Part shown: piece by piece, positions 2,573-61,920 of the stretch
How positions within the stretch are numbered: the stretch's first letter is position 1
Layout of the letters: each line of letters opens with the position of its first letter
Source of the DNA: Candidatus Kapaibacterium sp.
GTDB taxonomy: Bacteria > Bacteroidota > Ignavibacteria > Palsa-1295
Reading direction: 5' to 3'
Assembly (NCBI GenBank): GCA_035632315.1
Contig: DASQGZ010000034.1
Coordinates: 12,693 to 76,692 of the forward strand
Length of the DNA stretch: 64,000 nt
Position numbers and translations under genes: made by a program
The notes under the pieces: generated by a model
Databases searched by the model: none
What the model saw: the letters and a program-made list of their open reading frames with translations, nothing else
Told to the model about the DNA's origin: nothing

Positions 2573-2646
2573 TAGCGGGGGAGGGATTTGAACCCACGAC
2601 CTGCGGATTATGATTCCGACGCTCTAACCAACTGAGCTACCCCGCC
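2573..2646 (-). tRNA. tRNA with CAT anticodon (elongator tRNA-Met, or tRNA-Ile2 if lysidinylated)
   Basis: Reverse complement GGCGGGGTAGCTCAGTTGGTTAGAGCGTCGGAATCATAATCCGCAGGTCGTGGGTTCAAATCCCTCCCCCGCTA folds as a cloverleaf with a 7-bp acceptor stem, D-arm GCTC/GAGC, anticodon loop ATCATAA, T-loop TTCAAAT and discriminator A; two stem mismatches (27-43 and 50-64); CCA not encoded. Confidence 0.6.
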
Positions 2647-5897: not shown

Positions 5898-7888
5898 TCG
5901 ATGTATCCATCCCGAAAGCGGATTTTTGCAGAAAGACCGTTAACTTTTGGAGTGTATGTCAAAATGTTATTTTCGAGTTTTGCGCCAAGCATATCCCGTA
6001 CAACAAGAATAATAAATTCCGCCCACGACCATGGTAGAATCCCGATCGGTGGTAACGGCGGTGTAGGTCGCGAACCGTAAAATTCAAAGAACGACCCCGA
6101 GGCTCCTGCCTTATTAATAAGCCACTCCATCGCCTTATCAAACCAAACCCTCTCATTAAATTGTAATGCACACTGAGCAAATAAAATTGTGGCAAGCGAC
6201 CATGGTCCCGGTGAATCAGGCTCGCCCGAAATATCATAACGGCCAAGTCCGCCGCCGTCCCATGCTTGTGACCACAGCGCTGTGATGTCTGCAAACGTAT
6301 CTTTTGCTATACTGCTATTCCGGTCGATCACACCGAAGAGTACCGGAAAGAGTTGCGTAATATCAGGCTCAAGCTTGTGGACTCCTTTTCCTGATAATGG
6401 CATTGTTTTCGGAACGAACCTGGAAAAAAAGTCCTCGGCTTCTTTTTTCGTGTTAAGACGAATCTCTGTTTGCACACGTCCATCAACAAGAATTCTCTTT
6501 CGAATTTTCCCTTCGCGAATGAACAAGTGGGTCGGGTGAGAAAGAAATGCTGTTCTCATTTTCTGTGCTGCATCGTGCCATTTCAGGGCTTTCTGTTGCT
6601 TCCCTAAACGATCTGCAATGACCGATGCCGACTCCAGTCCGCAGATCGCAACTGTTTGATGAACTATGTCGTAACCCGATTCAATGCCCATTGCTGCCAT
6701 GCGTTCCCAAATATCGCGCGATGATTTGAGTAGATTTGTGTTCGAATCAAAAAATTCCGAATGCAATAGATAGTCTGCAACTCTTTCGATGGGGTCCGAA
6801 TAATCGTTGAAGAATTTTTCATCTGCCGTCCAGTCGAGATATGTTCGAAGGGCCATGAGGACAAATCCGTTCGAGTCAAGCTCGGCATCTCGTCCGCCTC
6901 GAAAACGACTCGCTTCGGCGATCATCCCCACGTTACTTGTCAAGCGTGTGAGTATGTTCTTCAGTACAGCCCTTGCACGATCGAATTGCCCCGAATAAAC
7001 AAGTCCTTCAGCTACCCGTGAAGCGTCTCTCCCCCACTGCATTCCATACTGCCAGATGCCGGAATCGAATCTTCCGTCATCTGATACCACCGCTCGAAGT
7101 CCGTATTTCGCAGCGTCAAATAGTTTTGCGATCGGCTCTGATATATTATTACTCGAAACTATATTTGATGATGTATTCCAATATTTTTGTTCGTCTGTGA
7201 ATTCACTTGCGAGATCGATACTGACATCTGTTAATTGATGATTAACAATATAGATAAATTGGGACTCAGTATTATCACCTTGGATTCCCTCAGGAGTAAG
7301 GGTAATAAATCTCTCATTGGTTGTTACTGTCGGAGAACCGGTAATGACGATCGCTCCGTGTCCGGAAGCAACGAGCGATCTGTCGGAAGCGTAAAATGAA
7401 GAATATAATACAGGGTTTGCGTACAATCCCGTTTCGATCTGAATATCTCGTTTGCCGGCATTATAAACATTTACCCATCTGATAAGATGATCAGCACCGT
7501 CCGGCACATAAAAACTTTCCCAGACGTCGCAATTGCCTGCGTGCCAATGTGCAAGAATGGTCGGAACTCCCTCATATTCAGACCACTCAACTGTCAAGTC
7601 ATCGTGTGTAGGCCTGTGGCGTATACCTTCGATCGTGACCGTCAGCATCGTACGTTCTAAGCCATACTCAGGGTGGAAAAGATAGCTTCCCCATTTACGG
7701 GTAAAATGCATCGGTTCTTGCAAAATAATACCGAGCGGCGTTGCGTCTAGGTTTCTGCTCCATTGAATACACGCCGTGATTTTGCCGGAGCCGAGAAAAA
7801 AGTAATCGGTGTCGGCAAGCATCGTTTGGTGATCGGGATGTAGTGATTGAAGATTATTCACGACAAGCAAAGTTACGTCACGAGCCAA
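5885..7888 (-). CDS. six-hairpin (alpha/alpha)6 glycoside hydrolase, GH15-like (glucoamylase/trehalase/glucodextranase family) with N-terminal beta-sandwich domain
   Basis: 667 aa, the size of bacterial GH15 enzymes; motifs QYGMQWGRDAS and RDIWERM resemble GH15 conserved regions; 13-nt overlap with the downstream BNR gene. Confidence 0.55.
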   Translation of the reverse strand: MARDVTLLVVNNLQSLHPDHQTMLADTDYFFLGSGKITACIQWSRNLDATPLGIILQEPMHFTRKWGSYLFHPEYGLERTMLTVTIEGIRHRPTHDDLTVEWSEYEGVPTILAHWHAGNCDVWESFYVPDGADHLIRWVNVYNAGKRDIQIETGLYANPVLYSSFYASDRSLVASGHGAIVITGSPTVTTNERFITLTPEGIQGDNTESQFIYIVNHQLTDVSIDLASEFTDEQKYWNTSSNIVSSNNISEPIAKLFDAAKYGLRAVVSDDGRFDSGIWQYGMQWGRDASRVAEGLVYSGQFDRARAVLKNILTRLTSNVGMIAEASRFRGGRDAELDSNGFVLMALRTYLDWTADEKFFNDYSDPIERVADYLLHSEFFDSNTNLLKSSRDIWERMAAMGIESGYDIVHQTVAICGLESASVIADRLGKQQKALKWHDAAQKMRTAFLSHPTHLFIREGKIRKRILVDGRVQTEIRLNTKKEAEDFFSRFVPKTMPLSGKGVHKLEPDITQLFPVLFGVIDRNSSIAKDTFADITALWSQAWDGGGLGRYDISGEPDSPGPWSLATILFAQCALQFNERVWFDKAMEWLINKAGASGSFFEFYGSRPTPPLPPIGILPWSWAEFIILVVRDMLGAKLENNILTYTPKVNGLSAKIRFRDGYIECEL

Positions 7889-39111: not shown

Positions 39112-39454
39112 GATAACCGCTATGACTTGAGGGGCAAAACAGACGGGATATACAACAAACGATTGATCTGGAAAGCGGTTACCGGAACATCAACCTTGTG
39201 TTATATTATTGTAACGGTGGGAACTTTATTACCTAAATTATAGGTTTTATACTGTCACGTATTGTAAGGTTTGAATCGAAATCACGGGATACATTTCGTT
39301 CTACTTACTACAAAACAACGATGAATATTTCTCTTGTGGGTTACCACTAGAGTGTTGTTCGTTTTACAACTAACCCTGCCGATGATCTGTCACGGGAACA
39401 TCGGCAAGATCACAATGAAATTATCAGGCTGCGGGATAAGCCCCATAATTCGGT

Positions 39455-40225
39455 ATGTGCAATAACTGGATCGATCCGCTTGTGCGAATATTGATTCGCA
39501 ACATTTGGATCGTATTGATCATATTATGTTTCAGCGTATCTGTACGAGCGCAACAGACAACCCCATCTCACGACGGGCGTACTGTCGCTGCTACGCCAAC
39601 ATCTTCCGAAACTCCCGCCTCGCTTGACAATCCGGCATCCGTTCTTGCGATGATGAGTACTGAGCCGCAATTCTACAGAGACTTTAAATTTCAGAATACA
39701 GCGCCTTCTTCCGTTACAATTACCGGTGCGGACATCGCCTCCGGATATTCAGGTGTTAAGATCATATCATCTCAGACTACGCCATTGCCGGCCACGATCG
39801 CCCCGGGAGAATTTTTTACCGTCCGCCTTGGATATTCCGAACTGAATACCCACGTCACTTCCGATACCCTTATCCTGACAAAAGAGAACGGATCGACGCT
39901 CTCATACCCGATCTGTATTTCTCGCATAAAGGCGACTTTTGAGCAAAATGGATTTAATCACCGCCAAATCGCGCTCTCCGTTACCCCCGACCAAAAGAAC
40001 CGGAGCGTTCAGGTTATCCTATACAGTGGATATCACGGGAACATTGCTATTTATACAAAAGACGGCACGCTCCTTGACGAGGCGAAAAATGTCCGGTCGT
40101 ACATTTGGCATACGACGCCCGGAAAAAAATTGTATGACGAAAACGAATATGTTATCCGAGTTACGTGTATCGATGGCGGCCAGACTCTGACTCGCTCCGA
40201 AACGATCTCGTTCGCATCAAAATAA
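39455..40225 (+). CDS. secreted hypothetical protein, paralogue A of tandem pair
   Basis: signal peptide ...ILCFSVSVRAQ; C-terminal 60 aa about 65% identical to paralogue B. Confidence 0.6.
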   Translation: MCNNWIDPLVRILIRNIWIVLIILCFSVSVRAQQTTPSHDGRTVAATPTSSETPASLDNPASVLAMMSTEPQFYRDFKFQNTAPSSVTITGADIASGYSGVKIISSQTTPLPATIAPGEFFTVRLGYSELNTHVTSDTLILTKENGSTLSYPICISRIKATFEQNGFNHRQIALSVTPDQKNRSVQVILYSGYHGNIAIYTKDGTLLDEAKNVRSYIWHTTPGKKLYDENEYVIRVTCIDGGQTLTRSETISFASK

Positions 40226-40233
40226 AAGTTGAG

Positions 40234-40273
40234 CTGTGGCGTATTGTTGTATGGGTTAGTGAATACGTTGCAG
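40234..40273 (+). other. conserved 3'UTR stem-loop element, copy 1 (12-bp stem, 16-nt loop)
   Basis: CTGTGGCGTATT-gttgtatgggttagtg-AATACGTTGCAG; loop sequence identical in copy 2. Confidence 0.4.
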
Positions 40274-40281
40274 TCTTGAGA

Positions 40282-40319
40282 GCGCAGGCATCCAAACCCC
40301 GGACGCCTGCGTTTTTTTT
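40282..40319 (+). terminator. rho-independent terminator, copy 1
   Basis: GCGCAGGCatccaaaccccggacGCCTGCGtttttttt. Confidence 0.65.
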
Positions 40320-40605
40320 ATTGACAAATTAAGAAACTATTATTCCTTCTTCGAAATTATATTCTCGTTCTGTTTTCGAATGTGCGATTGTGTATGCACC
40401 CATACATCCATACACAACCACCGAACATTCGGGTGCCACAACAGAACGACTCATGACACAACGCATTCGCTGCGTTGCACTAACCGAAAAAAAAAATCAC
40501 TGACCCGTCGGCGGTTCATACCGGCTGCCGATTCTCATTTGTCACCACTATAGCAGCGGGTTTTCCCCACGTTGCAATATGATTTTTTTTCCGGAGCATT
40601 CCGGC

Positions 40606-41358
40606 ATGCGATTATTATATCGTGTGCTCGGAGTCGTGTACATTTTATTCTCTTGTAATACTCGGACGACTGCTCAGCATCTCGCCAATATGGCAGGATC
40701 CGACGCGGAGTTAGGACCGAAAAGTCTTGCCCCGGTTGTGAGCAGTATTCCGCTCGATACTTCGCATACCATCCTGAAGATGGCAAGCAGCGAGTGGCAG
40801 TTCACAAGGGATTTCCAGTTCATGAACATCTCTTCTTCGGCGATCACCCTCACAGACGCATTAATGCGTTCCGGCGATTCCGGGATCAGCGTCGTCTCAG
40901 TCATTGGTAACGAATTCCCTCTGACGCTTGCCGGCGGAGGAAATATGACAGTACGTCTTGCATATTCGGCATCGAATATCAATACACGCAGCGACACATT
41001 GCTGATCGAGCGCGAAGAGGGTTCGCCGTTCAAATTTCCCGTGCAAGCGCGTCACGGATCAGTGTCTGCCGTGCAAAACGGATTCGGAAGGCGGCAGCTT
41101 TCGCTGACGGTGACGCCAAATTCATCCGAGCGAATGATCGAAGTGAAATTTTCGATGGCAACCATCAAAGGGAATATTGGAATCTATACCACTGATGGCA
41201 TTCTCGTCGATGAAGCAAAAAATGTCGGATCGTATATCTGGAGAACCTCACCAAAGATGCCGAGACATAATGAAAATAAATATGTCGTCCGGGCAACGTG
41301 CACCGACGGAGGGTATACGCTTTCAAAATCCGAAACAGTAAAATTCTCCGCACAATAA
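40606..41358 (+). CDS. secreted hypothetical protein, paralogue B of tandem pair
   Basis: start placed at ATG giving signal peptide MRLLYRVLGVVYILFSCNTRTTAQ. Confidence 0.6.
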   Translation: MRLLYRVLGVVYILFSCNTRTTAQHLANMAGSDAELGPKSLAPVVSSIPLDTSHTILKMASSEWQFTRDFQFMNISSSAITLTDALMRSGDSGISVVSVIGNEFPLTLAGGGNMTVRLAYSASNINTRSDTLLIEREEGSPFKFPVQARHGSVSAVQNGFGRRQLSLTVTPNSSERMIEVKFSMATIKGNIGIYTTDGILVDEAKNVGSYIWRTSPKMPRHNENKYVVRATCTDGGYTLSKSETVKFSAQ

Positions 41359-41363
41359 TTGTG

Positions 41364-41404
41364 CTGCAGCGTATTTGTTGTATGGGTTAGTGATTACGTT
41401 GCAG
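41364..41404 (+). other. conserved 3'UTR stem-loop element, copy 2
   Basis: CTGCAGCGTATT-tgttgtatgggttagtg-ATTACGTTGCAG. Confidence 0.4.
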
Positions 41405-41414
41405 TTCTACCAAA

Positions 41415-41451
41415 GCGCAGGCTTCCACACCCCGGAGGCCTGTGCTTTTTT
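41415..41451 (+). terminator. rho-independent terminator, copy 2
   Basis: GCGCAGGCttccacaccccggagGCCTGTGCtttttt. Confidence 0.6.
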
Positions 41452-41516
41452 ATTTACATACATCGGGCGCGAAAAGATATGGTTGTGATGTTAGGTTTAC
41501 ATCGACAAGTCTTGTA

Positions 41517-41852
41517 ATGAGTGAAGACGATACATCCCGGCTAACACCGAAACAGATCCAACAGATCGCGCGGGACCGCGCAGTCGGTAAAACGTCTCAT
41601 ACTCGCGCTGAGGAAATGTCCGATCAAGCGGAAGAAGAATACCGCAATGCACTTCGCGAGAACGCACCATATCTGACGCTCGGAATGCAAATGGCAGCAA
41701 CGATCGCCCTTGGTGCGGGCGTCGGCTGGTGGATCGACCAAAGTTCAGGCAGTTCGATATGGCTTGGCATCTGCTCGGGGATCGGCGCAGTACTTGGAAT
41801 GGGTTACTTTATTTTGATCGTCCTGAAAATGGATCGGAAATCGAAGTTGTAA
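41517..41852 (+). CDS. AtpZ/AtpI-like small membrane protein (ATPase_gene1 family)
   Basis: NAPYLTLGMQMAATIALGAGVGWWIDQSSGSSIWLGICSGIGAVLGMGYFILIVLKM; start placed at internal ATG (MSEDDTSRL). Confidence 0.5.
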   Translation: MSEDDTSRLTPKQIQQIARDRAVGKTSHTRAEEMSDQAEEEYRNALRENAPYLTLGMQMAATIALGAGVGWWIDQSSGSSIWLGICSGIGAVLGMGYFILIVLKMDRKSKL

Positions 41853-43126: not shown

Positions 43127-44872
43127 TTACCGATAATGCACAAATGAAATATCGAACGGCGGCATTGCCGCTGCGTCTATTTGCAAATGATATACACCCG
43201 TTGCAAGGCCTTCGACTGAGAGCGGCATCGGTGCATCTGTTGAAATATTTCCGTTGGATGATCCAACGAGCTTCCCGTTAAGATCGTAGAGCCGAAGCGT
43301 TAACGCGCCTGAATACAATGTCGAATAGATCATCGTCCGTTCGCCCGCAGGGTTCGGCACAAGCTTGAAGAGCGGCTCGGTATTATCGGCTGTTGTGCTT
43401 GTCACCGTACTTTGGCCACACGATCTGAACGAGCCGATGATCCCTTGAAAGCTTGCACCGGTGATCGCTGTTGCCGTTCCGGAACATCCGTCCCCTTCCA
43501 CAAGCGACGAAATGGAATCGAATGTAATATAATCGCAATCGAATTCGTACGGGTACCATTGAAACGCCGCATACCCGACAAGCGAATCGGGCAACGCATT
43601 AAGATCGTCCGCTTCGATATGCAGTGCGGCTCTTCCGCTCCAGCGGCTGCCTGCTACGTCAATGCTCTTGCCATAAAAAAGAAAACTACCAAGGTACGTC
43701 AGCGAGCCCGGTACATAATGCACGATCATATCAACGGTCGGCATCGGCGCTTTGTGATGCACGTAGATCGGCAGCCTGATCGTGACATTTGGTGTGTCAT
43801 TGATAATGCGCGCACTTGAGAACCGGTAATCAACTTTCGGTCCTGCCGTGACAACTTTCACCGAATCACCGCCGCTATTGGTCGTCCGCCAAATAGAGCC
43901 GTCCGGTGCAGAAGATAGAACAATATTGTCGTTAATAGCACATAGCAAACGAGAATCCTGGTGTTCAGATGGGCCACCGATCGCTTTCCAGGATTTTCCG
44001 TGATCGAGTGAACGAAACACCCCTTGTCCTTGCGAACTCCCAGCGTATGCTGCATTTGCCGATACGCTGCACGATGAAGAAAAGAAGGACTTAGGCTCCT
44101 GTATCGTTGAAGTCCATGACTGCCCATTATCGGTTGTTAAAAATATTTCCGAGTATCCGTTCTCAGTTTCATTGTACTGTTCATTTGTAATATAAACGCG
44201 CGACGCATCACAGGAGTCGAGCATAAATGAATAGCTATCGAGATCAACCTGCCCAGTTTGCTGAGACCATGATTTTCCAAAATCAGTCGATATGTTAATG
44301 TGTGAATTGTACATCGATTGTACCGACCTTGATAGTACATAACCTGTTTTTGACCGTGGGTTATAAATAGCTTCATACGCTCCGCCTCCAGAGCTTTCCA
44401 CTGTTTGTTTTGTCCATGTTGAACCTCCGTCGCTTGTATAGCTTATCGTACCTTGTAAACTGGCTCGGTCTGCGACAAAAAGCTCATTCCCATTTCGAGC
44501 AAACGAAACACCGAAACATTCACCTGTAACGAGAATATGATTCCAAGTAACACCTCTATCATTAGTGATGAATGCGCCTTGATTGATATAAACAATTGCA
44601 CCGGTATCTTTACTAAAAAAGCAAATATCACTGATGACATTTCCCGAACCTGATAATGGTGTCGTGATCTGCTGCCAAGTATTACCTGAATCTAAAGAAT
44701 TGAATACATCCGTTACGCCTGCCCAAAGGATACCATCTTTGAACGAGATTGCCCCCCCGTAAAGTATATTATATGACCCCAGTAAATTCGGCGCGACGTT
44801 TTTCCACTGGGCATAAACTGAGTGTGCTTGGCAAGCCAAGAGACAAATAAGGAAAATTATAGGACGTTTCAT
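43127..44872 (-). CDS. secreted BNR/Asp-box beta-propeller protein with T9SS C-terminal sorting domain
   Basis: signal peptide; six SxDxGxTW boxes (LDSGNTW, NDRGVTW, SDGGSTW, TDFGKSW, TDNGQSW, LDHGKSW); CTD ...LATGVYHLQIDAAAMPPFDISFVHYR. Confidence 0.7.
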   Translation of the reverse strand: MKRPIIFLICLLACQAHSVYAQWKNVAPNLLGSYNILYGGAISFKDGILWAGVTDVFNSLDSGNTWQQITTPLSGSGNVISDICFFSKDTGAIVYINQGAFITNDRGVTWNHILVTGECFGVSFARNGNELFVADRASLQGTISYTSDGGSTWTKQTVESSGGGAYEAIYNPRSKTGYVLSRSVQSMYNSHINISTDFGKSWSQQTGQVDLDSYSFMLDSCDASRVYITNEQYNETENGYSEIFLTTDNGQSWTSTIQEPKSFFSSSCSVSANAAYAGSSQGQGVFRSLDHGKSWKAIGGPSEHQDSRLLCAINDNIVLSSAPDGSIWRTTNSGGDSVKVVTAGPKVDYRFSSARIINDTPNVTIRLPIYVHHKAPMPTVDMIVHYVPGSLTYLGSFLFYGKSIDVAGSRWSGRAALHIEADDLNALPDSLVGYAAFQWYPYEFDCDYITFDSISSLVEGDGCSGTATAITGASFQGIIGSFRSCGQSTVTSTTADNTEPLFKLVPNPAGERTMIYSTLYSGALTLRLYDLNGKLVGSSNGNISTDAPMPLSVEGLATGVYHLQIDAAAMPPFDISFVHYR

Positions 44873-55334: not shown

Positions 55335-57500
55335 TCAGAATGAATGATGCACGATGCCCTTCGTCACTGTCATCCCTTCCGATTGTAATCTGCACATATA
55401 GACTCCATCCGCAAGATGCAGGCTTGCCGCATCGAATGAGATCTCGTGCTCGCCATTTGTTTGAAATTCGTTGACAAGCGTTGCGATCTCTTTCCCCGTT
55501 ATGTCTAACATATCCAGTCGAACAAGAGACGACAAAGGAACAACGTACCGTATGGTCGTTTCACCGGCGAACGGATTCGGATAGTTCTGCACGACCGAAG
55601 CATCCCAAGCAACCGGCACAGGCATAGTTACCCCACTTTTGCTCGGTCGTTGAGTACGGTAGAGCCCTGAACCCGTCGTGCCGGCATAGGCTATCTGATG
55701 CGCAGCGTCGTCATACATAAATGTCGGCGTACTTGCAAACGGGAACGTAGCTGCAAACCAAACAGAACCTCCGCTAGAGGAGGTTGACATTGCTGTCGCG
55801 CTCGCTGCGATCATAAAGAGACTCGGAGATTCTATGACAAGACCTGTAATATTCTTCAATGACGATGATAATGTCAACCAGCTCGCTCCGTTGTTGTTCG
55901 TATAATAAACACCATCAGCATTCGACGCATAGACATACCCAGTCGTACTATGAGCTGTCACTGCAAGGGGATTTGTGACAAGATTAGATGACAATTGCCA
56001 CGCATCGCCGTTGTTCGTTGTGTAATACACGCCTGATGTACAAAATGCAAATACATATCCTTGTGAACCGACGGTCAGGAATTTGATCGTATCCTGCGGG
56101 ATGCCGCTTCGCTTAATGCTCCAAGATAAACCGTTATCGATCGACCGATAGACCGTTCCGTTAAATCCGCCGAGAAACACTGTGCCGGAAGGCGTCACAC
56201 ACGATGCACGCATCAATGTTTTATTGATCCCGATGAGAAGCGAACCGGCTGTAATATCCGTCCAGGTATTGCCATCGTCAGTTGAATGATAGACTGCCGT
56301 TCCGAAAGCCGTCGCGTATAATTCGGTTGCGCTGGTCGCCGTGATGGAAGTAAAATTATGCGAAACGAGTACATCGCTTTGCACCGGTAACCAAGTATCG
56401 CCCTGATCGACCGAGCGGTATAATTCTGCGGTATCCGCCACAGCAAAGATATTTCCGCTGCTATCGGCTCCCATCGCCTGCACGGAGGCAGTGATCATAC
56501 CTTTACTACTCGGATTCCAAGTTTTGCACGTATCATGAGATGCAAAAACTCCGTTCTTCGAGAGCCCTTCAAAAAAATCCGAGTTTTTTCCTAAAAGACA
56601 GAGTGCATTATCGACGTCTGCAGTTGCCGCACGCACCGATTTCCAGGAGGCACCACCATTACGGGAAAACCACAGACCGGCTCCGCCGCTAACAAGGATG
56701 CTGTTGCCCTCATCGGTCGCAACTTCTGTGCCTGATGTAATATTCAATCCTCCGGTGCCGGAAATAATATTCCAGGAATTCCCGCTATCTGCCGAAGAAA
56801 AGATCCCTGCCTGGCTTGTTGCATACAGAGTTCCGGCAGCAGAGACTGCAATTGCGGCAACAACTTGTGGGAGCGATCCGGTGCTCACATTTGTCCATGA
56901 ACTTCCTTCATCTGTCGAACGAATCAGTCCGCCTGCGGTAATACCAAAGACTGAGCCGCTTGGTCCGCGGAAGAGCCGTGTGACCGGGAAAAGATCGGTC
57001 ACTCCGGGTTCGACCGGAATTCCATTCGTCGAATTACTCCACGACGTTCCCTGATTGCTTGAGCTGAATACGCCTGCGCCATAAGTTCCGACGATTATTG
57101 TTCCGTTCGAATTAACGGTAATCGAAAGCAAACTTGGTGCTGTCAGTGACGCGACCTGATTCCATGTTACACCTTGATCGGTCGATTTATAGGCGCCGGA
57201 ACTTGTCACAGCATACGCAACTGTCCCCGCAGGATCAAATGCAATAGCACTCTGCGAAGAGAAATCGAATGATTGGCTCGACGAAGTCCAGCTCGCGCCT
57301 TTATTCGTTGTCCGAAATACTTGCTTTGAAGCTGCAGCGAGTACGACGTTTCCTGACCCTTTTGCGAATGTCCAGACTTGCGCCCCTGCAGGACCTGCCG
57401 TCTGTTCAAATGTTGTTGGTTGTCCAAACGAATCGCCTGTAATTACCAACAAAGACAGAGCCATCACGCCAAAAAACGAATGTAATTTCATACTGATCAA
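55335..57500 (-). CDS. secreted multi-BNR/Asp-box beta-propeller protein with T9SS C-terminal sorting domain
   Basis: 721 aa; at least 12 SxDxGxxW boxes; CTD ...LHLADGVYMCRLQSEGMTVTKGIVHHSF. Confidence 0.7.
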   Translation of the reverse strand: MISMKLHSFFGVMALSLLVITGDSFGQPTTFEQTAGPAGAQVWTFAKGSGNVVLAAASKQVFRTTNKGASWTSSSQSFDFSSQSAIAFDPAGTVAYAVTSSGAYKSTDQGVTWNQVASLTAPSLLSITVNSNGTIIVGTYGAGVFSSSNQGTSWSNSTNGIPVEPGVTDLFPVTRLFRGPSGSVFGITAGGLIRSTDEGSSWTNVSTGSLPQVVAAIAVSAAGTLYATSQAGIFSSADSGNSWNIISGTGGLNITSGTEVATDEGNSILVSGGAGLWFSRNGGASWKSVRAATADVDNALCLLGKNSDFFEGLSKNGVFASHDTCKTWNPSSKGMITASVQAMGADSSGNIFAVADTAELYRSVDQGDTWLPVQSDVLVSHNFTSITATSATELYATAFGTAVYHSTDDGNTWTDITAGSLLIGINKTLMRASCVTPSGTVFLGGFNGTVYRSIDNGLSWSIKRSGIPQDTIKFLTVGSQGYVFAFCTSGVYYTTNNGDAWQLSSNLVTNPLAVTAHSTTGYVYASNADGVYYTNNNGASWLTLSSSLKNITGLVIESPSLFMIAASATAMSTSSSGGSVWFAATFPFASTPTFMYDDAAHQIAYAGTTGSGLYRTQRPSKSGVTMPVPVAWDASVVQNYPNPFAGETTIRYVVPLSSLVRLDMLDITGKEIATLVNEFQTNGEHEISFDAASLHLADGVYMCRLQSEGMTVTKGIVHHSF

Positions 57501-58270
57501 GTTTAGGATGAATGACGATTAATGCCGGAATCGAATAAAAAACACACCGGTAAATACAAAGTTACAGTCCTTTCTCGCAAAATGACCAAAATCCTAATTT
57601 AATACCTGCATAATGACGACAAAATATCAACTGTGTATTTTTGCACAGGTGTTTTTATCAATGAATACTCTTCGTTTTGTCATAGTCGTATTGTGCATCG
57701 CAGGCCTCCTTCGCCTGATCGGTTAATCGTTTTTTTTTCTGTATATACTCCAAAAATCATCCGTTCTCATAATCCATTTTATATGCCAATGTCTATGCTC
57801 ATATTCAGAATATTAAGGGCCAAAAAAATAAAATTGGATCTTTTTGACATAAAAAAACACTCATCCCCATTGTTATTTTAACCGCCATAAAAGATAAATT
57901 TTTGAAATTATTAGTTTAACGACTCAGCGTATAAGTTATTGATATTTAATAAATTATAAGAATCTATCTTTTACTTCAAAAATAATTTGCACTTGCTATG
58001 TTTTTTAATTATATTCGTATCCGTTTCTAGTTGCCCCTTCGCTCAAAACTGAATAGTTAGCCGTAATCCGCGAGTAAAAATCTCTCGGAGTAGTATGCCG
58101 TGCCAAAGGAGTTACCGATACTGTTTGTTTCGGTTACTCGAAACGATAAATTTGTTTCTGGCTTTGAAATAAGAGATAATGTAGGGGTGATCTTTATTCT
58201 GTAAAGATCAGCATTATTTTTTATGGCGGAAGCAACGGGAAAAAAGTTTTTATCACTAACCCATACATAT

Positions 58271-61200
58271 ATGAAGCAGGCACGTTTTCTTTTTGCCCTG
58301 TGGATTCTTTCACTCTTTGCAGCGAAAGACATATCTGCACAAATAACGCGCAGTTTTACCTATCAAGGTATTTTGGTTAATGCAGCAAACCAGCCCCTGA
58401 GCGGTGAACATCGTCTGACGGTAAAGCTTTACGATTCGCCTACCGAAGGCGCTGTTGTTCATAACGAGTCGTTCGCCACGACACTCGATAAGGGCGTCTT
58501 CAATGTGACGATCGGTTCAGAAACGCCATTCGAACCTCATTTTTCGTTCGCGAAGCAATACTGGATCGGCGTCAGCGTGGACGACGGCGTCGAAATGACA
58601 CCGCGTACGCTCGTTACTACCGTCCCGTATGCTTTGTCGTCTAATGAGGCAAGTGCGCTTACGCCAAATGCGACAGGAGCCGTACGCAGTTTCAATGGCC
58701 GCACTGGTGATCTCGTACTTAAAAGTGGAAACGGTCTCGATATTGAAACCGTCGGCAACACGATCACGATCTCGACTGCACTATCAGGTTATAAAGGCGG
58801 CGGAGCGCCACAGCAATCATTTGTAAATAGTGCGGCAGGAACAGCAAATCAAATATTTGTAAATGGTGGTGTCAGCGCGCAAACAGGAGCAGTCACACTC
58901 AGTCTTCCGCAAGATATTGCTACAACCTCTTCCCCAACATTTGGCGGGATGAAGGTGACAAATTTAAACACCACAGGCATCGTACATAACACATTGACAG
59001 GTACATTGTCGACTTCGCTGATCGTCGATGGTGATGTCAGCCCAAGTGCGGGCATTTCCGATTCCAAACTTGCAACGATCTCAAGTGCAGGAAAAGTAAA
59101 TAATTCTGCTACTACCGCAACATCCTCGAATACGGCGAATAGCATTGTATCACGCGATGCATCAGGTAATTTCAGCGCGGCAACGATCACTGGGAATCTC
59201 AATGGCAATGCAACGACTGCATCGACATTCACCGGTTCGCTTTCAGGGGATGTGACAGGGACAGAATCATCAACGGCCGTTAGCACTGTCGGTGGCCAGT
59301 CTGCAGCTAATGTTGCTTCGGGTGCAGTTGCGGCTAATGCTGCAACAAATGCGAATACTGCAAGCACGATCGTCAAACGCGATGCGTCCGGTAATTTCAG
59401 CGCCGGAACGATCACGGGTAATCTTAATGGCAATGCAACGACTGCAACGGCTGCATCGACATTTACCGGCTCGCTTTCAGGGGATGTGATAGGGACAGAA
59501 TCGGCAACAGTCGTCAGCACTGTCGGTGGTCAGTCTGCAGCAAATGTTGCTTCGAGTGCAGTTGCGGCTAATGCTGCAACAAACGCGAATACTGCAAATA
59601 CGATCGTCAAACGTGATGGTTCGGGTAATTTTAATGCCGGACAGATGACCGGAAATTTAAACGGCAATGTCATCGGTAATCTTGTCGGAAACATAACAGG
59701 TAATCTTACCGGTAATGTTGTCGGTAACCTGACAGGCAATGTGACAGGTAATATAACAGGCGATGTCAGCGGCACATCTGCAAATGTAACCGGAGTCGTG
59801 ACCGAAGCGCACGGTGGAACAAACCAAAGCACATATACAGCCGGTGATATGCTCTATGCTTCGGGCGCGAATACGCTTTCGAAGCGTTCGATCGGCGCTG
59901 CAGGAAACGTGCTTTCAGTTTCGGGCGGGATCCCGGTGTGGTCAGCTCTGTCATCGCTTGGCGTGACATCGGTCGCAGGTACTGCGAATCAGGTACTCGT
60001 TAATGGCAGCACTTCCGCTCAACTTGGCAGTGTCGCATTATCCTTGCCACAGAATATTGACCTTGGCGCAACACCGCAATTTGCGAATGTGAATCTCACT
60101 GCTATTCCGAATAGCAGTACATACACTAACTTTGTCGTCTCGGCCGGAGGCGCATTGCAAACCCGCAGTTTCGCATCGCTTGCGAACGGATACTGGGCAC
60201 GCGGCGGAAATGCCGGTACAACTCCAGGGACTGACTATGTCGGTACCAGCGATAACACCGCTTTGTATTTGGGAGTCAATGGCGCAGCACGACTCGTGCT
60301 CGGAACGAACGGAAGCATGCAACATGATGCAGGCGGCAACACACGAGGCACCAATGCGATCGATCTACAACTGACAAGAACCGATGCTTCACACATTGCT
60401 TCAGGCGATTACTCAGTGCTTGCCGGTGGCCGTGACAATACAGCCAGCGGTACCGGCTCATTCGTCGGAGGCGGCGGCACCGATGGAACGACGGTTATTC
60501 CGAATATTGCTTCCGGCAACGGATCGGTCATCAGCGGCGGTCTTTGGAATACTTCGAGCGATGAAGCAACTGTTGTCGCAGGAGGTTACCACAATACGGC
60601 AAGCAATACAACAGCAACAGTCGGCGGAGGATCTGCAAATACTGCAAGCGGCGGGTTTTCGACGGTCGCCGGAGGCAGTGGCAACGCGGCAAGCAGCATC
60701 GCCGATCTTGTCAGTGGCGGTTATCAAAATAATGCGAGCGGCGGATACTCCACTGTAGGTGGAGGAACAGGAAATAGTGCAACAAAATATGCTTCGACCG
60801 TTAATGGGGGCTTCGGCAATACTGCAGGCGGGCTCTATAGCAGCATAAACGGTGGGAAGAGCAATTCTGTCAGTTCAGACTACTCGTCGATCGACGGAGG
60901 ACTCTCTAACACAGTGAGTGACCAATATAGCGGAGTCGGAAGCGGGTTTAACAATAGTGTCTCAAACACGTTCAGCTTCATCGGTGGCGGACAGAATAAT
61001 GAAGCAGGTTCGTATTCCGGTGTAGTAGGCGGCGGTTATAATAATCATTCGCTCGCTAATTATTCAGCCGTTGTTGGCGGTCAGCTCAATTATGCTGAAG
61101 CAGATTATACATTCACCGGGGGTGGCTACAACAATATCGTTGAAGCTGGCTACTCGGCCACCTCAGGCGGTTACAAGAACATCGCAGATGGCTCGTACGA

Positions 61201-61837
61201 AGTGATCGCAGGTGGATATTCGAACGCAGGCTATTCCACGGCCGGCGTCGTCTCGGGCGGAGCTTCGAACCAATCGGTCGGAGATTATTCTACGATCGAC
61301 GGCGGATCGAGCAACACGACCAACGCAAATTATTCGACGATCACCGGCGGTGCGAATAACACGACGACATCCGGCGCTGATTATTCAGTTGCATACGGCA
61401 ATTCGGCAAACACATCACAGTATGGACAACAGGCGCAGGCAGCGGGTCAGTTTTCTTCCAACGGCGATGCACAGACATCCGTCTATGTAGAGCGCGGTTC
61501 GACTAACAGTACCACTACCGTGAACTTGGCTCTTGACGGCGGCTCGACCGAACTTGTTGTACCGGGAAGCACAACGTTCGCGTTCAAGATACTTGTCGCT
61601 GCTCGTGACGACGCCGGAAACTCGGCAACGTACCTTATCGAAGGTAATGCCGCTAATAATAGCGGCACAGTGACGATCACATCGTCTGCTACAACAAGCT
61701 ACACCAACGGATTCACCACCGGTTCTGTATCAGTCAGTTCGAATAGTGCGACGATGCGTATCAAGGTTAGCGATTCCAATGGGTCGCATACGGTTCATTG
61801 GGTAGCCCGTGTGGAAACAGCAGAAGTTATGTTTTAA
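58271..61837 (+). CDS. giant secreted Gly/Asn/Thr/Ser-rich repeat protein (tail-fibre/YadA-head Hep_Hag-like repeats); putative adhesin or surface fibre
   Basis: signal peptide MKQARFLFALWILSLFAAKDISAQ; three protein repeats of about 79 aa (IVKRDASGNFSAGTITGNLNGNATTA...); GNxTGN heptads; 14-mer repeats S.V.GG..N.ASG; C-terminal Phe. Confidence 0.7.
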   Translation: MKQARFLFALWILSLFAAKDISAQITRSFTYQGILVNAANQPLSGEHRLTVKLYDSPTEGAVVHNESFATTLDKGVFNVTIGSETPFEPHFSFAKQYWIGVSVDDGVEMTPRTLVTTVPYALSSNEASALTPNATGAVRSFNGRTGDLVLKSGNGLDIETVGNTITISTALSGYKGGGAPQQSFVNSAAGTANQIFVNGGVSAQTGAVTLSLPQDIATTSSPTFGGMKVTNLNTTGIVHNTLTGTLSTSLIVDGDVSPSAGISDSKLATISSAGKVNNSATTATSSNTANSIVSRDASGNFSAATITGNLNGNATTASTFTGSLSGDVTGTESSTAVSTVGGQSAANVASGAVAANAATNANTASTIVKRDASGNFSAGTITGNLNGNATTATAASTFTGSLSGDVIGTESATVVSTVGGQSAANVASSAVAANAATNANTANTIVKRDGSGNFNAGQMTGNLNGNVIGNLVGNITGNLTGNVVGNLTGNVTGNITGDVSGTSANVTGVVTEAHGGTNQSTYTAGDMLYASGANTLSKRSIGAAGNVLSVSGGIPVWSALSSLGVTSVAGTANQVLVNGSTSAQLGSVALSLPQNIDLGATPQFANVNLTAIPNSSTYTNFVVSAGGALQTRSFASLANGYWARGGNAGTTPGTDYVGTSDNTALYLGVNGAARLVLGTNGSMQHDAGGNTRGTNAIDLQLTRTDASHIASGDYSVLAGGRDNTASGTGSFVGGGGTDGTTVIPNIASGNGSVISGGLWNTSSDEATVVAGGYHNTASNTTATVGGGSANTASGGFSTVAGGSGNAASSIADLVSGGYQNNASGGYSTVGGGTGNSATKYASTVNGGFGNTAGGLYSSINGGKSNSVSSDYSSIDGGLSNTVSDQYSGVGSGFNNSVSNTFSFIGGGQNNEAGSYSGVVGGGYNNHSLANYSAVVGGQLNYAEADYTFTGGGYNNIVEAGYSATSGGYKNIADGSYEVIAGGYSNAGYSTAGVVSGGASNQSVGDYSTIDGGSSNTTNANYSTITGGANNTTTSGADYSVAYGNSANTSQYGQQAQAAGQFSSNGDAQTSVYVERGSTNSTTTVNLALDGGSTELVVPGSTTFAFKILVAARDDAGNSATYLIEGNAANNSGTVTITSSATTSYTNGFTTGSVSVSSNSATMRIKVSDSNGSHTVHWVARVETAEVMF
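59140..59690 (+). repeat. intragenic tandem DNA repeat, unit about 237 bp, about 2.3 copies at more than 90% identity
   Basis: near-identical blocks beginning ATCGTCAAACGCGATGCGTCCGGTAATTTCAGCGCCGGAACGATCACGGG at about 59143, 59371 and 59608. Confidence 0.75.
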
Positions 61838-61920
61838 AGTCAGAAAGAGTAGAGAGAGAGTTCGATCTGACTTTTTTAAGAGAAGGCTGTGAAGCGATTT
61901 GCTTCACAGCCTTTTTCTTT
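61838..61920. terminator. two tandem hairpin terminators (the second is perfect and bidirectional)
   Basis: AAGTCAGAaag...tcgATCTGACTTtttt, then AAGGCTGTGAAGCgatttGCTTCACAGCCTTtttc. Confidence 0.7.

Follow-up and report, generated by a model that had tools for sequence, protein, structure and literature searches.

A conserved hairpin behind paralogous secreted-protein genes of Candidatus Kapaibacterium as a putative small RNA embedded in the 3′ untranslated region

Introduction

In a stretch of 64,000 nucleotides from Candidatus Kapaibacterium sp. (contig DASQGZ010000034.1, positions 12,693 to 76,692; hereafter the window), two adjacent genes encode paralogous proteins, and the stop codon of each is followed by a unit of about 95 nt in which a hairpin with a long loop precedes an intrinsic terminator. 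The question raised by this locus is why the 3′ untranslated regions (3′UTRs) of these two genes, referred to here as host genes 1 and 2, have been kept so alike, and what the loop of the hairpin is for. A first-pass annotation, made from the sequence alone, had offered three options, namely a 3′UTR-derived small RNA (sRNA), a stabiliser and a protein-binding signal. Below, the conservation of the unit in other genomes, its structure and the occurrence of a sequence complementary to its loop directly before the start codon of an adhesin-like gene are described. On the strength of these results we suggest, as the probable though by no means certain explanation, that the unit represents a new family of 3′UTR-embedded, trans-acting sRNA that would block translation initiation of the adhesin-like gene. 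The coordinates of all features are collected in Table 1.

Table 1. Features of the host gene pair, the two 3′ units and their predicted pairing sites (positions are those of the window)
Feature	Position	Strand	Description
Host gene 1	39455..40225	+	Open reading frame, 256 aa; predicted signal/anchor helix, then two Ig-like beta-sandwich domains
Hairpin 1, copy 1	40231..40277	+	Stem GAGCTGTGGCGTA / TACGTTGCAG(T)CTT; loop 40244-40263; covariance-model score 75 bits
Invariant core, copy 1	40248-40262	+	TGTATGGGTTAGTGA, inside the loop of hairpin 1
Intrinsic terminator, copy 1	40281..40319	+	Stem AGCGCAGGCATCC / GGACGCCTGCGTT, then a run of eight T
Candidate second pairing site	40495..40514	+	AATCACTGACCCGTCGGCGG; 5′ region of host gene 2; best non-trivial loop duplex in the window
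Host gene 2	40579..41358	+	Longest open reading frame 259 aa; NCBI start 40606, giving 250 aa; paralogue of host gene 1
Hairpin 1, copy 2	41363..41405	+	Stem GCTGCAGCGTA / TACGTTGCAGT; loop 41374-41394; covariance-model score 73 bits
Invariant core, copy 2	41379-41393	+	TGTATGGGTTAGTGA, inside the loop of hairpin 1
Intrinsic terminator, copy 2	41412..41451	+	15-bp stem, 7-nt loop, run of six T
Anti-loop site	58252..58267	+	ATCACTAACCCATACA; complementary without mismatch to 16 nt of the copy-2 loop and to 15 nt of the copy-1 loop
Predicted target gene	58271..61837	+	1188-aa secreted repeat protein; signal peptide MKQARFLFALWILSLFAAKDISAQ; about 17 kb from the host genes

The 3′ unit and its conservation

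Each unit consists of a hairpin of 12-16 bp with a loop of 20-24 nt, followed by the terminator, and past the stop codons the two units of the window are 84% identical. The 3′ regions have fold z-scores of -4.4 and -5.3, hairpin and terminator being present in each, and the antisense strand folds about 10-14 kcal/mol worse than the sense strand, because several of the stem pairs are G-U. The first-pass annotation had described a tandem module of about 1.1 kb, in which a 12-bp stem begins about 8 nt past each stop codon, carries an identical loop and differs between the copies at two positions that preserve pairing. The gene starts are indeed 1124 nt apart, and a 16-mer of the loop (GTTGTATGGGTTAGTG) is the same at 40246-40261 and 41377-41392 (none of 100 shuffles gave three matches). 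The two compensating differences (U-G to C-G and G-U to A-U, at alignment columns 20/67 and 24/59) are real as well. The distance of 8 nt fails for copy 2, where the stem begins 5 nt after the stop codon, and the 12-bp stem is present, although the helix reaches 13-15 bp when its outer pairs are counted.

The same 3′ unit was found behind homologous genes in four other assemblies of the Kapabacteria type (L001, L005, L006 and L079), bringing the number of copies to six. L001, the sole family member with a long NCBI contig, was reached through its protein alone (33% identical) and shows the same loop directly past the stop codon, carried by a stem whose sequence differs, followed by a terminator. 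L079, located on a JGI contig, was also reached through its protein; the unit is present, and its loop (UCAUUUGUGUAUGGG) has a deletion of 1 nt in the 5′ part. A scan with a 19-mer (TTGTTGTATGGGTTAGTGA) of one genome per GTDB species, 596 Gb in total, yielded seven loci. Two of these, L005 and L006 (both Candidatus Kapaibacterium sp.), are canonical units directly downstream of family genes of the 475-aa type, one was L001 again, and one (L002) is a site complementary to the loop, which is described below. The remaining three (L003, L004 and L008) have neither stems nor a family gene nor an adjacent start codon and were counted as chance matches, of which about four are expected.

Identity of the unit among the six copies, which come from five assemblies, is 67-86%. 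The host proteins of the copies in other assemblies are only 29-37% identical over their last 70 residues; at the DNA level the last 70 host codons, the best-conserved part of the adjacent coding sequence, have 43-57% identity, the figure for third positions being 24-34% for 12 of the 15 pairs and 38-70% for the three pairs formed by the closest relatives. For the two host genes of the window, a codon-level comparison gave 32% identity at third codon positions and 28% at four-fold degenerate sites, so synonymous sites are saturated and the duplication is old. The unit is thus far better kept than the adjoining coding DNA, which argues for purifying selection on the RNA. Taken as a whole, these comparisons show that the unit is a real, conserved and structured RNA element that is not present in Rfam. 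At gathering thresholds, Rfam 15 gave no match in the whole window besides one tRNA. An E-value search of 40150-41520 returned L20_leader at 19 bits, compared to a threshold of 58.7, and Atu_C9 at 16 bits, compared to 40 and on the wrong strand.

Further scans added no copies. In IMG/VR the 15-mer gave 43 matches, none with a stem or a family gene, which is consistent with chance. In the JGI metagenomes a 17-mer gave 18 matches, all attributed to chance by their context, although the 17-mer was too strict, as the 5′ part of the L079 loop varies and the contigs with tandem gene pairs in metagenome 3300047160 (see below) were missed. A covariance model (R1), run over the window and 13 loci, found no canonical copies past the six from which it had been built.

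Two annotation issues concern L001. The CAYOJJ01 contigs that carry L001 and L002 are labelled “uncultured Alphaproteobacteria bacterium”, a label that is probably wrong: their Por_Secre_tail proteins of the type IX secretion system (T9SS), BNR/sortilin proteins, host-gene family and RNA element point to Kapabacteria/Bacteroidota. In L001 the family gene is annotated from 10001, a start that leaves out any signal peptide and has probably been set too far downstream.

Structure and covariation

The six copies were aligned by hand into an outer helix, a variable bulge, an inner helix, the loop, a linker and the terminator, gaps being padded with N. All of them fold as a hairpin plus terminator, with the helix beginning 5-13 nt past the stop codon; this short distance, together with the sole terminator at the end of the unit, indicates that the unit is co-transcribed with its host gene. 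Intrinsic terminators are present in 6/6 copies, with stems of 11-17 bp followed by 5-9 T.

Standard pairs fill 97.4% of the 154 cells of the alignment, compared to 86.7 ± 1.8% in shuffled alignments and 34-47% when the partners are slid by 1-3 columns. Two-sided pair changes were observed eight times, against 3.8 ± 1.3 after shuffling (2/500 shuffles reach 8), and the covariation score is 0.447 as opposed to 0.237 in the shuffled sets, with 0/500 shuffles reaching the observed score. Double changes affect four of the six pairs of the inner helix, with five pair types in one column, and variants of this helix include GCGTA/TACGT, CACGTA/TACGTG, CTACTA/TGGTAG and ACACTA/TAGTGT. The terminator stem GCAGGC/GCCTGC is conserved across genomes to an unusual degree, with two compensatory changes in L079. 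Within the loop, the 15-mer core (TGTATGGGTTAGTGA; as RNA UGUAUGGGUUAGUGA) is invariant in the six copies, and the segment AUGGGU has an unpaired probability near 1 in every copy.

These data bear out the earlier suggestion that selection acts on RNA structure and not on protein: the four additional copies hold the hairpin by compensatory changes around an invariant core of 15 nt, while the coding DNA is saturated.

A TAnnTTTG-like box (TAAGTTTG) that lies over the stop codons of L005 and L006 was considered as a promoter of the sRNA's own and rejected, its last G being the first paired base of the covarying outer helix.

A complementary site before an adhesin-like gene

A third exact copy of the core 15-mer is found in the window on the opposite strand, where it forms the anti-loop site of Table 1. 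In 128 kb of two-strand sequence, a third exact 15-mer is expected about 1e-4 times. Its last base stands at position -4 of the ATG at 58271, with 3 nt in between, and this ATG opens a signal peptide. The duplex of loop and anti-loop has an energy of -25.6 kcal/mol.

The gene that starts at this ATG encodes a protein in which residues 768-1024 match the head of UspA1 in the PDB (3pr7_A, E 4.3e-16). In view of these UspA1/YadA-like head repeats the protein is described here as adhesin-like, with no claim that it belongs to the trimeric autotransporters. Tail-fibre-like repeats (IVKRDASGNFSAGTITGNLNGNATTA) are present as well, and the 1188-aa protein has no match in Pfam or PHROG. The gene is monocistronic and is followed by terminator-like hairpins at 61840-61915. 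About 30 nt upstream of the anti-loop, at 58197-58240 (+), a perfect 8-bp hairpin (GATCTTTA-ttctg-TAAAGATC) with a T-run behind it could be attenuator-like.

A second site of this kind was found in the same metagenome-assembled genome (MAG) as L001, on another contig. At 7296-7316 of L002, the sequence AATCACTAACCCATACAACAA is a perfect 21-nt complement of the L001 loop and ends at position -1 of an ATG that again opens a signal peptide. Read from the sequences, a lineage-specific extension of the L001 loop, CUCAUU, would carry the complementarity across the AUG of L002 to 24 bp with one bulged A. The gene immediately upstream of the L002 site shows homology to the N-terminal domain of the window target (E 1e-27). 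Given that the scan of 596 Gb returned seven loci in all, about four of them expected by chance, a chance match that falls in the same genome and also at a start codon is very unlikely. Both target leaders are G-free, rich in A and C and, by prediction, largely unpaired (0.64 and 0.82), and cofolding of the loop RNA with the target leaders gives a gain of 15-26 kcal/mol. Directly upstream of the L002 anti-loop, at 7279-7294 (+), a perfect 14-nt palindrome (ATTCTACGTAGAAT) lies between two fibre-protein genes; this could be an operator or a hairpin.

Proposed mechanism

Among the three options of the first-pass annotation, the evidence favours the sRNA, since neither a protein-binding role nor a stabiliser role would predict antisense sites at start codons, and such sites are present in two genomes. 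In the mechanism that we propose, each of the paralogous mRNAs would carry a regulatory module of about 95 nt in its 3′UTR and share its terminator with it. The loop would serve as an antisense seed, with contact probably starting at the always-unpaired AUGGGU and spreading from there, and would pair with the leader just upstream of the adhesin-like start codon (58252-58267). Bacteroidota do not use Shine-Dalgarno-based initiation and rely on A-rich leaders (PMC7366714, PMC11697453). As the leader is the region that their ribosomes need for initiation, pairing there should occlude ribosome loading and block translation, and the target would probably also be destabilised. In this way, production of the small Ig-like secreted proteins would be linked to the silencing of the adhesin-like gene. 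The acting form is probably a fragment processed near a conserved AAGTTG just before the helix, although the whole mRNA might take this role. When the host gene was duplicated, the regulator would have been copied with it. We infer from the sequence data that the RNA is produced and processed, that pairing with its target takes place inside the cell and that the outcome is repression.

A broader model can also be drawn, a switch between two kinds of surface protein in which the 3′UTR loop RNA silences the adhesin-like fibre gene and, in this genome, additionally contacts the leader of its own paralogue, so that the circuit would be feedback-wired and multi-target. On the present sequence evidence this extension is tentative, and the odds are somewhat against it.

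Several points weigh against the proposed target-blocking sRNA. Only two sites of the target type, in two genomes, were found, and no third. Homologues of the target N-terminal domain in three assemblies (P0071-P0073, L070-L078) have no loop or anti-loop within 3 mismatches, these assemblies not having been shown to carry the sRNA either, and the target search leaves out the genomes of L005, L006 and L079. The gene directly behind the L002 site (gene B) was rejected as an orthologue of the window target, the best BLASTP E-value being 0.29. The pairing statistics given above are inflated by an alignment that was hand-fitted to the structure, and the six sequences represent about four lineages, so independent events are few. 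Finally, the seed lies within a loop that is predicted to be closed by a long stable helix, and pairing past a kissing contact would need opening of this helix or a helper protein.

Alternative explanations

The 3′ unit might instead be a cis-acting element without a target in trans, the loop being read by an RNA-binding protein or nuclease that determines how stable the host mRNA is, how its 3′ end is processed or where it is localised. The unit always stands directly behind one gene family, with a terminator in common, and an invariant loop on a covarying stem has the typical look of a protein-binding hairpin; global RNA binders of the RNA recognition motif (RRM) type are moreover present in Bacteroidota (PMC11697453). 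However, a cis element leaves the 16-nt and 21-nt loop complements at the start codons of secreted-fibre genes in two genomes unexplained, as recognition of the loop by a protein would not extend to the complementary sequence, and we regard this explanation as rather unlikely.

Pairing between mRNAs, or self-control, was considered as well. Here the unprocessed 3′UTR would pair with the leader of its paralogue at 40495-40514 and thereby open or close a hairpin at 40507-40532, a feedback on the gene family in which the adhesin site would be secondary. In a whole-window scan this duplex reached -24.5 kcal/mol, compared to minima of -14.2 ± 2.0 in blocks of 320 nt (about 5 sd beyond them) and to -20.5 for the next best site, and it is the strongest non-trivial duplex of the window. 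The site also overlaps the 5′ arm of the hairpin, which is terminator-like, with 10 bp (GTCGGCGGTT/GGCTGCCGAT) followed by a T-rich stretch. The duplex nevertheless needs 6 G-U pairs, and the regions upstream of host gene 1, L001 and L006 give -13.9 to -15.6 kcal/mol, which is background (32% of blocks are at -15 or lower), so the site is not conserved there and is retained as a tentative lead only. As 40495-40514 may in addition fall outside the transcript, self-control as the main function of the unit seems improbable.

Anti-loop sites upstream of host gene 1, L001 and L006 were rejected on the same background energies, and short matches such as ACTAACCC and ACTGAC were not counted. Two minor observations concern the region before host gene 2. 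A second short anti-loop-like match (CACTAACC) is present at 40476-40483 (+). In the spacer between the modules, at 40388-40417 (+), a perfect 9-bp inverted repeat (TTGTGTATG / CATACACAA) encloses a loop (CACCCATACATC) that contains ACCCATACA; one of its arms resembles the sRNA loop and the other the anti-loop, and it could be a decoy or what is left of a decayed copy.

According to a third explanation, the conserved sequence would act as DNA, as a site of 15-19 bp for protein binding or recombination that works in either orientation, the inverted repeats being incidental or forming a cruciform. The same sequence does occur in both orientations relative to nearby genes, and separate, repeated boxes that resemble regulator sites are found upstream of the family genes. 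By contrast, the stems covary as their sequence changes and contain many G-U pairs, which in duplex DNA or on the other strand are mismatches, and the unit always has one orientation to its host gene and always has the terminator behind it. A site of this kind would therefore account for the data only by a slim chance. Lastly, the idea that the unit has no function, its 3′ similarity being left from a recent duplication or from gene conversion limited to the gene ends, would fit two copies that are adjacent and 84% identical but is refuted by the saturated synonymous sites and by the occurrence of the same unit, with an identical loop core, in four other assemblies after genes that are 29-37% identical.

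Upstream boxes

The boxes just mentioned belong to the upstream regions, where shared blocks had also been pointed out in the earlier description; these blocks exist, and they are part of motifs that other genomes keep as well. Boxes of the form (T)CACGGGA(T/A)ACA, two or three per region, are present at 39230-39450 of the window, at about 9700-9800 of L001 and at about 1270-1440 of L006. A second box, CGGGAT(T/A)(G/A)CCCC(CTC), stands close to the start in the same three regions. The TGTCAC and GCGGG...CCCCA blocks are included in these boxes, which by their sequence look like binding sites of a regulator plus a promoter or leader element.

Comparison with known small RNAs

In enterobacteria, trans-acting sRNAs that derive from a 3′UTR and keep the parental terminator include CpxQ, SdhX, DapZ and MicL. 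The element described here resembles this class in its position directly past the stop codon, its use of the host terminator and a seed that is better kept than the coding sequence; its location at the 3′ end of a coding transcript with a common terminator, together with a conserved seed that has complementarity in trans, would place it among the 3′UTR-derived sRNAs. Unlike these, it carries its seed in the apical loop of a hairpin of 12-16 bp and not in a single-stranded 5′ stretch, shows perfect complementarity of 15-21 nt, belongs to a phylum without Hfq and ProQ, was duplicated together with its host gene and is known here from sequence alone.

A closer comparison can be made within Bacteroidota. 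In Bacteroides, the sRNAs GibS and FopS repress by pairing at translation initiation regions without Hfq or ProQ (PMC7366714, PMC11697453), and 21 UTR-derived sRNA candidates have been reported in Bacteroides thetaiotaomicron (PMC7366714). With GibS and FopS of this species the element shares paralogous copies, extended seeds and, as proposed here, Hfq-independent pairing at or beside the start codons of mRNAs that encode proteins of the cell surface, with a block of translation. GibS and FopS differ in having their own promoters, in being mostly intergenic (a 3′UTR origin applies to only 1/14 FopS) and in their single-stranded 5′ seed. They also differ in their targets and hosts, which are SusC-like transporters in Bacteroidaceae, compared to adhesin-like fibres in Kapabacteria for the element. 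In architecture the element lacks the single-stranded 5′ seed (R1/R1′) and the sigma-ABfr promoter of the GibS/FopS group, its own seed being placed in a hairpin loop that leaves no space for a promoter; the architecture of GibS and FopS is taken from the published work (PMC7366714, PMC11697453). Rfam gave no match either, although it was not checked whether Rfam 15 includes a GibS or FopS model, and their sequences were not compared directly with the element.

Seeds exposed in hairpin loops are known from Hfq-independent systems, for example from the Firmicutes sRNAs RsaE/RoxS, which have C-rich loops, and from plasmid antisense RNAs, whose interactions begin with loop contacts. The element is like both in exposing its seed in this manner and in having ribosome-binding regions as (predicted) targets. 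It differs from them in a much longer, G/U-rich loop that would pair with a C/A-rich leader devoid of a Shine-Dalgarno sequence, and in being embedded in a 3′UTR.

A literature search on Kapabacteria and small RNA yielded no paper, and few sRNA-target pairs are established even in Bacteroidota. The element could become a new Rfam family. If the proposed mechanism is true, it would provide an example of loop-seed 3′UTR sRNAs in a phylum without Hfq and without Shine-Dalgarno-based initiation, as well as an sRNA-target pair found from genome sequence in a class without genetics. It would also represent a case in which gene duplication carried a 3′UTR regulator along, under constraint far stronger than that on the protein. 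Several features make it directly testable, namely the defined structure, the invariant seed, the specific predicted target site at a start codon and the natural variant in L079. The loop of the latter predicts a matching change in its target (CCCAUACACAAAUGA), which, if true, would mean that loop variants co-evolve with their targets.

Host genes, their relatives and neighbouring features

The two host proteins were aligned by BLASTP over their full length with 40% identity (E 8e-63), and an N-terminal hydrophobic helix with a terminal A-Q motif occurs in both, in agreement with their description as paralogous signal-peptide proteins. The identity of about 65% claimed for the C-terminus was too high: the final 70 aa are 53% identical, and the two C-terminal blocks of 30 columns reach 54-60%. 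The protein of host gene 1 is identical to NCBI VEW28_05025 and that of host gene 2 (P0001) is an exact match of the hypothetical protein VEW28_05030, both from a Candidatus Kapabacteria MAG; the true start of host gene 2 is likely 40606. In addition, a Logan assembly contig of run SRR6788488 is the same as the window, base for base, over 6.8 kb.

For neither protein did a Pfam or NCBIfam model score above its cut-off. The NCBIfam model NF012200 (choice-of-anchor D) reached 17.5 bits, compared to a cut-off of 45, with gene 2 alone. The AlphaFold model of host protein 1 (mean pLDDT 76) has a helix at 8-32 and is all-beta after that, with two beta-sandwich domains. The nearest solved folds in Foldseek are PapD-like chaperones, RbmA and SPD-2/ASH, at E 1e-5 to 1e-8, although the TM-scores are only 0.2-0.35. 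According to the model, the host proteins are small, secreted or anchored, and composed of two Ig-like domains; no function is assigned to them. As carriers of the T9SS C-terminal sorting domain (PF18962, TIGR04183) they were rejected, there being no profile match at E <= 0.1 in Pfam or at E <= 10 in NCBIfam; a distant relation to this domain is conceivable, their C-terminal domain being a beta-sandwich in the model.

When 1.8 billion representative proteins were searched with a profile, P0002-P0008 emerged as a small protein family with the host proteins (E < 1e-30). The gene maps of P0002, P0069 and P0070, on short contigs of relatives in JGI metagenome 3300047160, show tandem pairs of family genes of 254-258 aa, and on one contig a single family gene adjoins a Metallophos gene, as in the window. 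Both the tandem arrangement and the local synteny thus recur in relatives.

Elsewhere in the window, a tRNA gene at 2573-2646 (-) is the sole Rfam match at gathering thresholds. A large BNR/sortilin-like protein encoded at 43127-44872 (-) matches the T9SS sorting profile PF18962, and a second large protein, encoded at 55335-57500 (-), is BNR/sortilin-like by eye. The region as a whole appears rich in genes for secreted proteins.

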